Below, in pieces: positions 614 to 3,924 of a DNA stretch of 64,000 nucleotides; position 1 is the stretch's first letter; every line of letters starts with the position of its first letter. The translations under genes and the position numbers were made by a program. The stretch is from Myxococcota bacterium (GTDB taxonomy: Bacteria; Myxococcota_A; UBA9160; SZUA-336). The notes beneath the pieces were generated by a model. The model was not told the DNA's origin. It saw nothing but the letters and a program-made list of their open reading frames with translations, and searched no databases. Where the stretch lies: NCBI GenBank assembly GCA_965247115.1, contig CBDFGR010000003.1, positions 64,001-128,000 on the forward strand, in the 5' to 3' direction.

Positions 614-967
614 ATGCTTCGACAGACCGCTGCCTTGACGGCCGTCCTGGTGCTCGCGGGGTGCGCCGGGAGGGAGACCTTCTGGACCAAGCAGGACGCT
701 TCCGAGCGTCAGTTCCAGGCCATCAGCGGGCGCTGCGCGCAGTGGGCCAGCGAAGAGGCGGCGGAGCGGGTGGGCAGCGGCAGCAAGGACACCTGCGTGT
801 TCGACAGCCGCTACGGCACAGTCTGTGGGCGGCCGCGCGACACACAGGAGGCCGCCATGAGGCGAGAGATGAGGAGGGAAGACAGGGCGAGGCGGCTCTG
901 GGGCCAGTGCATGGAGGACCGCGGCTGGACGTCGAACCACGACGGTGTCGGCTACCAGCGGACGTAG
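614..967 (+). CDS. Hypothetical small lipoprotein
   Basis: GGAGG RBS, hydrophobic signal with LAGC lipobox, four further Cys residues. Confidence 0.7.
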   Translation: MLRQTAALTAVLVLAGCAGRETFWTKQDASERQFQAISGRCAQWASEEAAERVGSGSKDTCVFDSRYGTVCGRPRDTQEAAMRREMRREDRARRLWGQCMEDRGWTSNHDGVGYQRT

Positions 968-1487: not shown

Positions 1488-1919
1488 ATGACAGACGAGC
1501 AACTCTTCTGGGACGACATCAGCGAGGGCCAAGAGGTCTCTCTCCAGGAGCCGATGAGCTCCCAGCGCCTTGTGATCTGGGCCGCCGCTTCCGGCGACTT
1601 CTACCAGATCCACTACGACGACGGCTTTGCGAAGGGGAACGACCTTCCGGACATCATCGTGCACGGAGCACTCAAGGGCATGCTGGTGGGACGATTGCTG
1701 GACGAGTGGAAGGGATCAGAGGGGCGCATCGTGAACTGGGGGGTCTCGTACCGAGGCATGGACGCCGCGCGCCAGGACCTGCGCGTCTGGGCGAAGGTCA
1801 CGAAGAAGTACGAGGAGGGAGGCGAGGCTCGCGTGGACCTCAACGTGGGCGTCACCCAACCCAACGGGACCGAGACGACGCCGGGCACCGCTACCGTCGC
1901 TCTACCGAAGCGGGTCTAG
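1488..1919 (+). CDS. MaoC-family acyl dehydratase
   Basis: AAASGDFYQIHYD...IVHG hydratase motif; AGGAG RBS. Confidence 0.88.
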   Translation: MTDEQLFWDDISEGQEVSLQEPMSSQRLVIWAAASGDFYQIHYDDGFAKGNDLPDIIVHGALKGMLVGRLLDEWKGSEGRIVNWGVSYRGMDAARQDLRVWAKVTKKYEEGGEARVDLNVGVTQPNGTETTPGTATVALPKRV

Positions 1920-1941
1920 GCCGAAGCGGGCCTGGGCCGAA

Positions 1942-3000
1942 TCAGGCCTGGGCCAAAGCGGGCGCGATCCAGGTCTGCAAGCCGGCCAGCTCGGGCTCCA
2001 GCTCGGGGGCGCTGGCGAGAGGCGTGAACTGCCTTGCAAACTCCGGGTTCGCACGCCGGGCGTGCTTCACGATCGCGTCCGTCGCGACGATGCCGCCCGG
2101 CGGCGCGAGCTTGAGGATCCGGGCGGCGATGTGGACGCTCGGGCCGACGAGCGACACCGTCTGGCGGAAGCGCGTTCCCACGATGCCAATCACGACGGGA
2201 CCCATGTCGAGCGACAGGCGAGGCAGCGGGAGTGCGGGTAGCTCGACCCGCCGGCGCAGCAGCTCGTCGCGCAGACGAAAGGCGGCGGGCACCGCCTCCC
2301 CCGCTCCTTCGAAGTAGAGGAGCGCACCGTCGCCCTCGAAGTCGTGCACGTCTCCGCAATGGTATGCGCCCACGTCGATCACGATCTCCATGAACGCCTG
2401 CATGATCTCGAGGACCTCTTCGGCGGAGCGGCCCAGAACGAGGCGCATGGACGAGACCATGTCGACGAACAGGGCCACCATCTCGCGCTTCAGCGGTAGC
2501 TCGTGACCCTCGAGGAAGGTCTGTCCCGCGATGCGCGGCAGGAAGGCAGAGTCGGCCTGGATCCCCGCTGCCTCGGGGGCGCGGAACATCTCGGCCAGCG
2601 GAACTTCCTTCCACGCGGGTCCCGGCGCCGGAATCTCGCTGGAGACGGGCTCGAGGGGATAACCAGCCTCGATCCAGGCCTCGAGCCCTCCGCGCAGCGC
2701 CGCGACGTCTCGGTAGCCGTCCTGAACCAACCAGTTCGCGACCCGCGAACTCGAGGCCTCGCCTGTTCAGAGGCAGTAGGCGACCAGGGGACGGTCTCGC
2801 GGGGCGACCGGCAACAGGATCGGATCGCGATCGAGAGCGAAGGGAAGTGCACCGGGAATCCCACCGTGCTCACCGAAGCCCGCTGCGCGCCGCACATCCA
2901 GGAGGAGCGGCGCGGGCGGCGTCTCGAGTGAGGACTTCAGCTCTTCGGCCCCGATGCGTCGAAACTTTCCAGGGGAAACGGCGTCGGTGGAGGTCATCAC
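1942..3000 (-). CDS. Rhodanese domain + class III adenylate/guanylate cyclase fusion; candidate selenoprotein (UGA at 2767-2769 read as Sec)
   Basis: ORFs 2767..3000 and 1942..2730 are in one frame separated only by a TGA. Joined: LLLDVR...GIPGAL...PLVAYCL-U-TGEASSSRVA...LRGGLEAW (complete rhodanese), then LFVDMVSS...FEGDG...VGPSVHIAAR (cyclase). Confidence 0.82.
2733..2751 (-). promoter_or_regulatory. Bacterial SECIS-like hairpin
   Basis: mRNA AGUUCGCG-GGU-CGCGAACU: perfect 8-bp stem starting 15 nt after the UGA, G-rich apical loop 23 nt after the UGA. Confidence 0.72.
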
Positions 3001-3093
3001 CTGAGCCTAGCACCGACCGGCCGCTTCGCCGCACGTCTCGAACCCGGCTCGCCTATACTGGGCACCGTTCTCTACTGATTCCACGGAGGAGCC

Positions 3094-3924
3094 ATGAGCG
3101 AGAGTCGCAGTATCGATACCGGTACGGAGGATCTTCTGGCGCGCGTCGAAGACCGAGTCGCAATCCTCACGATGAACCGCCCTGACCGCCGGAATGCCAT
3201 GTCCAACGGCATGATTGTGGGCCTCGGGCATGCGCTGGCCGAAGTCGAGGTGGCGGATGACGTGGGTTGCGTGGTGCTCACGGGCTCGGGTGGGGCATTC
3301 TCCGCCGGCGGAGACGTGAAGGGCATGGCCAGCGCCGGTGACGGCAGCGCCGCGCCTGTGGGCTTCGACGAGCGGGTACACCTCCAGCGCCTGAACCACC
3401 GCGCCACCTCCGGTCGGATCTACGAGATGCCCAAGCCGGTGATCGCGTCCCTACCGGGGGCTGCGGCTGGCGCAGGTCTCTCCCTCGCGCTGGCCTGTGA
3501 TCTGCGCATCGCGTCCGAGCGCGCGATCCTGACCACAGCGTTCGCCAGGGTGGGCTTCAGCGGCGACTTCGGTGGAACCTGGTTCCTCACCCGACTCGTG
3601 GGCGCGGCCAAGGCTCGCGAGCTCTATTACCTGTCTGAGCGCGTGGACGCGAAGGAGGCGGAGCGGCTCGGGCTGCTGAACTGGGTGGTGCCCGACGACG
3701 CGCTCGAGGAGCGCACGCTGGCACTAGCGCGCCAGCTCGCCAGCGGCCCCACCGTCGCGTACCGCTACATGAAGGAAAACATCCGACGTGCCATGAGCGA
3801 GGATCTGTTCGAGTGCCTGGACCTCGAGGCGACCCACCACATCCACACGGGACGCACGGAAGATCACCGCGAGGCGGCGAAGGCCTTCGTCGAGAAGCGA
3901 ACGCCCGTGTTCAAGGGACGCTAG
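3094..3924 (+). CDS. Enoyl-CoA hydratase/isomerase (crotonase) family
   Basis: NRPDRRNAM, AFSAGGD, AAGAGLSLALACDLR motifs; GGAG RBS. Confidence 0.93.
   Translation: MSESRSIDTGTEDLLARVEDRVAILTMNRPDRRNAMSNGMIVGLGHALAEVEVADDVGCVVLTGSGGAFSAGGDVKGMASAGDGSAAPVGFDERVHLQRLNHRATSGRIYEMPKPVIASLPGAAAGAGLSLALACDLRIASERAILTTAFARVGFSGDFGGTWFLTRLVGAAKARELYYLSERVDAKEAERLGLLNWVVPDDALEERTLALARQLASGPTVAYRYMKENIRRAMSEDLFECLDLEATHHIHTGRTEDHREAAKAFVEKRTPVFKGR

Follow-up and report, generated by a model that had tools for sequence, protein, structure and literature searches.

Two open reading frames follow one another on the minus strand of a Myxococcota contig, and they raise the question whether the TGA at the end of the first is a stop codon or encodes selenocysteine (Sec) within one longer protein and, in the latter case, what a Sec-containing rhodanese does in front of a nucleotide cyclase. 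The whole stretch of DNA analysed, 64,000 nucleotides long, is referred to as the window, and positions are those of the window unless a locus is named. Standard ORF calling yields two pieces, 2767-3000 (77 aa) and 1942-2730 (262 aa). The initial annotation had taken them for one frame broken by a single TGA, leaving the strand unstated. Translation of 1942-3000 on the minus strand with TGA read as U gives indeed a single frame, interrupted once, by the TGA at 2769-2767, and ended by another at 1944-1942. The product is 352 aa long from GTG 3000, the length originally proposed, or 351 aa from ATG 2997, from which residues are counted here. Its active loop reads Y74-C75-L76-U77-T-G-E-A-S-S-S-R, then VA, in agreement with the annotated loop, and runs on into the cyclase domain (Table 1). 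Coding on the plus strand was rejected, that translation containing several stops.

Table 1. Features of the rhodanese-cyclase gene in the window
Feature	Position	Strand	Basis
Whole gene, rhodanese(Sec)-linker-class III cyclase	1942..3000	-	Translation, ORF calls
Rhodanese-fold domain, residues about 11-116	2650..2967	-	PF00581 E 8.3e-9; NF041203 62 bits; PDB rhodanese matches
In-frame TGA, U77 in C75-L-U77 (C75 at 2775-2773)	2767..2769	-	Cys/TGA exchange
SECIS-type hairpin, 8-bp stem, GGU loop	2733..2751	-	Stem search, folding, covariation
Interdomain segment with W129 and motif 150-162 (putative role)	2512..2613	-	Conservation, structural alignments
Class III nucleotide cyclase domain, residues about 169-346	1960..2493	-	Alignments, column counts, Foldseek, VIA

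The gene is apparently monocistronic, its flanking genes lying on the plus strand, and neither a sigma-70 promoter nor an intrinsic terminator was found at 1850-3150. Contigs from two metatranscriptome runs of one study span the TGA with 0 differences; these runs are no proof of transcription because DNA may be present. None of 162 matches was a plasmid record covering 80% of the protein. Elsewhere in the window, ORFs at 1-500 look frame-broken when set against an intact gene at the matching place of a same-genus locus (L010:6294-6713), and a 117-aa lipoprotein-like ORF at 614-967 (+), with several cysteines and without a Pfam match, is conserved in the same-genus genome.

The in-frame TGA

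The protein relatives examined were the best 120 of 296 matches. All 60 full-length proteins among them carry Cys at column 77 and likewise at column 75 (60/60 each). The remaining 60 start at query positions 90-118, directly past the Sec column and where truncated selenoprotein calls would begin; judging from these starts, they are presumably Sec forms. At the DNA level we examined 68 loci (L010-L058, L107-L125) and removed 10 duplicates; 50 of the resulting 58 matched the loop motif, while the other eight comprised six without loop coverage, a spurious one and one with ambiguous bases. Column 77 in the 50 loci is TGA in 22 (this gene included), TGC in 20 and TGT in eight (28 Cys), so that C or U alone occurs there in the proteins and DNA loci examined. 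Both flanks of the column are conserved, and the homologues thus display the Cys-or-TGA pattern that had been proposed as a check. On a 38-row tree TGA forms appear in at least five places; we claim no direction of the Cys/TGA change, given a weakly supported backbone and midpoint rooting. The initial annotation had also asked for the TGA to be confirmed in reads; in contigs from 4/4 runs of four studies the stretch 2705-2904 shows no difference.

A perfect 8-bp hairpin with a GGU loop, 23 nt from UGA to loop, was found where it had been annotated (AGTTCGCG-GGT-CGCGAACT, 2751-2733 on the minus strand), and it agrees with the bacterial SECIS model of PMC13188914. Its folding energy (-18.7 kcal/mol over 50 nt; z -1.62, 10 of 200 shuffles as good) is weak evidence by itself. 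Under a criterion of eight Watson-Crick pairs and a G-loop at 16-37 nt, such stems follow 17 of 4000 Cys codons and 16 of 2055 TGA stops of this genome, and synonymous recoding of the same peptide yields one in 3.8% of 2000 trials. Among distinct downstream sequences, kin not being independent, an 8-pair stem is present in 15/20 after TGA versus 1/25 after Cys; in 5/20 TGA sequences there are only 5-6 bp stems. All 72 stem cells pair in the clade of the query, where one pair switches from U-A (four sequences) to C-G (five), the encoded residue alternating between Asn and Ser; Cys forms carry Gln, Leu, Arg or His at that residue. A second set of nine TGA sequences has its stem displaced by two bases, with 91.7% of cells paired. 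Here a C-G (six) to U-A (three) switch is synonymous on both sides in members with the loop YCT-U-PED, and the covariation of this set was reached by 0 of 500 shuffles.

The genome also contains selA, selB, selC (tRNA-Sec) and selD, all above curated cut-offs, in line with the annotation's proposal to look for these four genes. Its selD has an in-frame TGA of its own together with an 8-bp hairpin with a GUC loop. Since selA is above cut-off in 5/5 TGA-form genomes checked and also present in 3/3 Cys-form genomes, its presence does not discriminate between the two forms. At G000:C2:1656159-1658025 (L004) the match to selB is split into two pieces in different open frames, which may reflect a frameshift or an alignment break. 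Genome-wide recoding of TGA was rejected: TGA ends 2055 of 3812 called genes, tRNA-Trp has the anticodon CCA, and the sole TCA tRNA is tRNA-Sec.

Taken together, the Cys/TGA exchange, the covarying SECIS, the complete Sec machinery and the independent assemblies all agree with the selenoprotein reading of the initial annotation, and we put the probability that this TGA encodes selenocysteine at about 0.97. On each point that the annotation had named as able to overturn that reading, the result went the other way: the machinery is present, the column is Cys or TGA, the hairpin is conserved and the TGA stands in the runs. That the TGA instead really ends translation, or reflects a sequencing error or a recoded Trp or Gly, with two separate or decayed ORFs, would suit the public gene calls, which split the gene (the 262-aa piece is P0302), the rank of TGA as commonest stop and the unremarkable folding energy of the hairpin, but is highly improbable against a column restricted to Cys or TGA, TGA forms in at least five tree places, covariation that includes changes synonymous on both sides, a TGA kept in four independent studies, and a genome in which TGA ends genes normally.

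The family falls into two clades, A (YCL-U/C, that of this gene) and B (YCT-U-PED). In clade B all eight DNA-checked loci have TGA, and none of the 121 proteins examined retains the Sec loop. The family is common in metagenomes but hidden, with 60/120 best hits and 121/121 sister-clade proteins lacking the Sec loop. Matches were found in 18/225 genomes of the class and in 8/401 genomes sampled from the phylum, all eight in the same class; named relatives belong to Myxococcota, Candidatus Binatia and Algiphilus, and atlas clusters agree. Cys orthologues, 49-66% identical, carry the automatic name [quoted passage not shown] (JGI), and that of Algiphilus (WP_084191250.1) has the same architecture. 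In the same-genus locus L010:2604-3827 (+) a DDE transposase lies directly upstream and appears to replace the first ~30 codons of the orthologue, whose TGA and SECIS are intact.

Domain architecture and the cyclase active site

The best NCBIfam match of the rhodanese domain is NF041203 (rhodanese_LYCAU, E 4e-17). Its score falls short of the 115 bits set as curated cut-off, and the scores of other family members range from 50 to 76 bits. HMMER aligns U77 with the canonical rhodanese catalytic position, and in the predicted model a strand ends just before C75. Rhodanese domains of this type also occur in other settings: P0138, P0153, P0169, P0178 and many proteins of ~530-600 aa contain 4 to 16 tandem matches. 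A same-genus locus (L132, minus strand, ~4420-4017; G358:C21) holds a truncated clade B fragment with the loop Y-U-T-U and a clade B-type hairpin. It ends inside the cyclase, is followed by an apparent recombinase remnant (recognised by eye) and lies between repeats, where ARAGORN found no tRNA or tmRNA. A U-x-U form has been reported for rhodanese-related selenoproteins (PMC1976440).

Seven of the 121 clade B proteins (P0149, P0268, P0304-P0308) extend into an AhpC/TSA domain, each of them ending in FYRGEW, which corresponds to position 37 of the Pfam AhpC/TSA model in the four proteins scanned. This end lies, as we take it, just before the AhpC/TSA redox Cys. Four of these relatives also start just past the rhodanese Sec column. 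Such proteins are probably three-domain forms with two or more selenocysteines, the protein ends suggesting a second Sec after FYRGEW. No three-domain form was found among the 225 genomes of the class.

Between the two domains, W129 is invariant and the motif S-x-F-L-P-R-I-A-G-Q-x-F-L (150-162) is conserved. Structural alignments to regulated cyclases begin at model residues 142-160 and so reach into this segment, which resembles a cyclase-transducing element, the centre of which is SxLP/NxLP (PMC9552081).

Conservation is far stronger in the cyclase half of the protein than in the rhodanese half. The cyclase half misses Pfam PF00211 and matches class III cyclases by both sequence and fold. 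The AlphaFold2 single-chain model is a confident two-domain model (pLDDT 89.3, pTM 0.85), which Foldseek matches to CyaC with E 1.5e-12; the VIA alignment to Cya2 (Z 22.3, rmsd 2.4, 181 aligned) is tied with those to many other cyclases. Alignments to CyaC and OaPAC place D179 and D223 at the metal aspartates and R293 at the transition-state Arg. In the same alignments D219 occupies the position of the adenine-binding Lys, E221 that of a hydrophobic residue located two positions ahead of the second Asp, S282 the Thr/Asp position and H289 that of the transition-state Asn. We compared these columns in 241 relatives (the best 120 of 296, 119 from a second search, and P0149 and P0268). Among those listed, D219 and R260 are found in 241/241, D223 in 240/241, D179 in 239/241 and R293 in 234/241; R260 and the C-terminal Lys presumably bind phosphate. 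In one distant relative, P0134, both cysteines are gone, and so is the first metal Asp. Several proteins (P0140-P0143, P0146, P0147, P0157, P0159) are cyclases with the D219 pocket in which short Cys-containing N-termini replace the rhodanese; P0146 has in addition a long C-terminal extension without a Pfam match. H213-C214 is conserved as well, C214 being present in 240/241 relatives listed. A role for C214 as dedicated partner of U77 is not supported, as relatives apparently without a rhodanese keep it.

The clades differ in other catalytic features. The transition-state Asn stands at column 289 in 18/120 clade A and 109/121 clade B proteins listed, and 116/121 clade B proteins have the C-terminal Lys motif. 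In the group of the query, the 60 N-truncated relatives, His replaces Asn in 60/60 and the C-terminal [KR]G motif is absent from 59/60; 11 Cys relatives have Pro at the Asn position. Other cyclases lacking this Asn are active, among them Ma1120 with Ala (PMC4215837) and Rv1900c with His (PMC4886424).

The Lys and Asp/Thr pair that specifies adenine in canonical adenylate cyclases is not found, D219 being invariant and residue 282 being S/A. In canonical guanylate cyclases the first site is Glu and the second one of C/S/T/H/A/G (PMC4215837); here the first site is acidic but Asp rather than Glu, and the second fits. In one cytidylate cyclase the residues four and two before the second Asp recognise the base (PMC11224242), and a cGMP-making PucC has been modelled with Glu and Lys (bioRxiv 10.64898/2026.08.12.744502). 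Because Asp replaces the adenine-binding Lys, the product would likely be a cyclic nucleotide other than cAMP; from the residues, cGMP would be the most likely, a cyclic pyrimidine also being possible. D219 is not a sign of decay, because clade B keeps Asn and the Lys motif with the same D219. The cyclase call of the initial annotation therefore holds for the fold, the metal aspartates and the arginines, while it had overlooked the non-canonical base pocket (Asp for Lys, Glu for a hydrophobic residue) and the loss of two canonical catalytic features in the subclade (Asn to His, and the C-terminal Lys motif).

Stimulus and mode of action

The idea that a Sec sensor is wired to second-messenger synthesis fits this architecture. 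In the reading that we prefer, and for which we see roughly even odds, the Sec rhodanese acts as a thiol/selenol redox switch of a class III cyclase that makes a product other than cAMP. SelB would read the hairpin and insert Sec at the UGA. Oxidants or reactive sulfur species would then bring C75/U77 into a selenenylsulfide or persulfide-type state, and the change would be relayed via W129 and the transducer-like segment 150-162 to the interface of a cyclase homodimer, a dimer that we assume from class III cyclases. The acidic D219/E221/S282 pocket may favour GTP, or possibly a pyrimidine nucleotide, over ATP, and the product would be read by one of the cNMP-binding proteins of the genome. 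There are eight of these (PF00027 matches); the receptor is not assignable among them because the genome has 23 other PF00211 matches.

Gene neighbourhoods bear on the stimulus through domain scans of selected neighbours (82 + 15), many contigs being short. In one Cys clade NnrS is the gene immediately downstream, as confirmed by Pfam in L029 and L110, and in L029 a hemerythrin comes next. The NnrS neighbours, the AhpC/TSA fusions and the U-T-U form point to a redox stimulus, and a redox role also agrees with a column 77 limited to C or U and with Cys at 75 in 60/60. At Sec-form loci neither a conserved redox partner nor any neighbour conserved beyond the genus was found; a Cys/Met PLP enzyme and a LysR gene 3.7-5 kb away are common only to the same-genus genome. 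At L052:3992-5454 a second, stand-alone rhodanese resembling that of the Cys-form gene comes after it, with DUF411 next.

Metal-resistance genes lie within the fetched flank of 13/28 Cys loci and include P1B-type ATPases, multicopper oxidases, DUF411, MerR-family regulators, a metal-sensitive repressor, an RND pump and a cation-efflux protein. This favours a different stimulus for the same selenoprotein cyclase: its C-x-U/C-x-C loop would bind a soft metal, e.g. Cu(I), and report metal load. The metal context is seen in two separate Cys clades and at one Sec locus (L019), and in L017/L105 the gene has a repressor-ATPase pair on one side and a methyltransferase on the other, all on one strand. 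The same class I methyltransferase, usually located within heavy-metal resistance clusters, adjoins the Cys form in seven loci of two clades (L016, L017, L040, L041, L044, L049, L056). Against metal sensing, the independent events are few, because 11 of the 13 loci belong to one clade and L016 and L017 are sisters, L016 moreover counting solely through a C-terminal ATPase piece and the shared methyltransferase. The context is found at 1/22 TGA loci only, and L122, of the same genus as L019, shares its TerB neighbour without the ATPase. In the window itself the gene has MaoC dehydratases and enoyl-CoA hydratases as neighbours, encoded on the opposite strand. We consider metal sensing unlikely, though it is the alternative that survives best. 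The initial annotation, in proposing sulfur/selenium/redox sensing, had missed that the genes around Cys relatives implicate copper or heavy metals no less than sulfur.

A further alternative is that the cyclase of this subclade has little or no activity and acts as a module for nucleotide binding or dimerisation that regulates a Sec-dependent sulfur/selenium transferase, control then running in the opposite direction. In favour of such a module are His in place of Asn and the missing C-terminal Lys motif in the group nearest to the query, Pro instead of the same Asn in Cys relatives, the lack of a PF00211 match and the losses in the distant P0134. Against it are nearly invariant metal aspartates and arginines, the stronger conservation of the cyclase half, the activity of Asn-less cyclases and a sister clade with the full catalytic set. 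We judge such a module to be less likely still than a metal sensor.

A wider form of the redox-switch reading can be proposed tentatively, as something rather less than probable: a widespread, mis-annotated selenoenzyme family in which a Sec redox switch gates a cyclase that makes cGMP or a cyclic pyrimidine outside phage defence, its Asp/Glu pocket setting it apart from the solved cyclases aligned with it. Its members would contain one or two Sec, some of them probably with further Sec in a fused peroxiredoxin-like domain.

Comparison with known systems

In our judgement this is a real, conserved and mis-annotated selenoprotein of undescribed sensor-cyclase design and with an unusual base pocket. 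The initial annotation had regarded the architecture as undescribed, which needs a distinction: the Cys form is already recorded by automatic annotation, with Cys in place of Sec in the same architecture, while no description of the fusion and no functional study of the Cys orthologues was found in the literature searched, a scope that takes in few subscription papers. A 2026 catalogue (PMC13188914) covers 119 families of prokaryotic selenoproteins, most of them redox enzymes. The word "cyclase" has 0 occurrences in its main text, and the pairing is not in its Table 1 of 119 families. The Sec domain type is therefore known already, and its pairing with a cyclase is absent from the catalogue. 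If our reading is correct, selenocysteine stands at the input of second-messenger signalling. Cys orthologues of cultured bacteria such as Algiphilus make sensing and product testable without Sec expression, and the invariant acidic base pocket is of interest of its own for cyclase specificity.

The closest described selenoprotein is the rhodanese-like "form 3" (NF041203; Table 1 of PMC13188914). Both share the rhodanese fold and C-x-U; form 3 is a stand-alone domain with a 126-position model, whereas here the domain is fused to a cyclase and scores well under the model cut-off.

Pycsar and Pucsar cyclases (PycC, PucC) share the class III fold and polar base-recognition residues two and four before the second Asp, the base and metal residues of EaPycC being R142, Q144 and D146 (PMC11224242), and PADLOC gives weak matches to PycC (E 4e-8). 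The residues differ here (D219/E221), the N-terminal domain is a Sec rhodanese, and neither a defence context nor a TIR or transmembrane effector was found among the window neighbours or the selected neighbours scanned in relatives. Rv1900c and Ma1120 have a non-Asn residue at the transition-state position with reported activity, His in Rv1900c as here; they differ in having other regulatory domains and no Sec, and Ma1120 has the canonical K/D pair.

The regulated cyclases CyaC (1wc0), CyaB (3r5g), OaPAC/bPAC and Cya2 (2w01) have the same fold (VIA Z 20-22), and their sensor-linker-catalytic layout, two metal aspartates and transition-state Arg are all present here. The protein described here is 15-23% identical to them and differs at four positions, where Lys is replaced by D219, a hydrophobic residue by E221, Thr by S282 and Asn by H289. 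It belongs to a subclade without the C-terminal Lys motif, and its putative sensor is a selenocysteine rhodanese.
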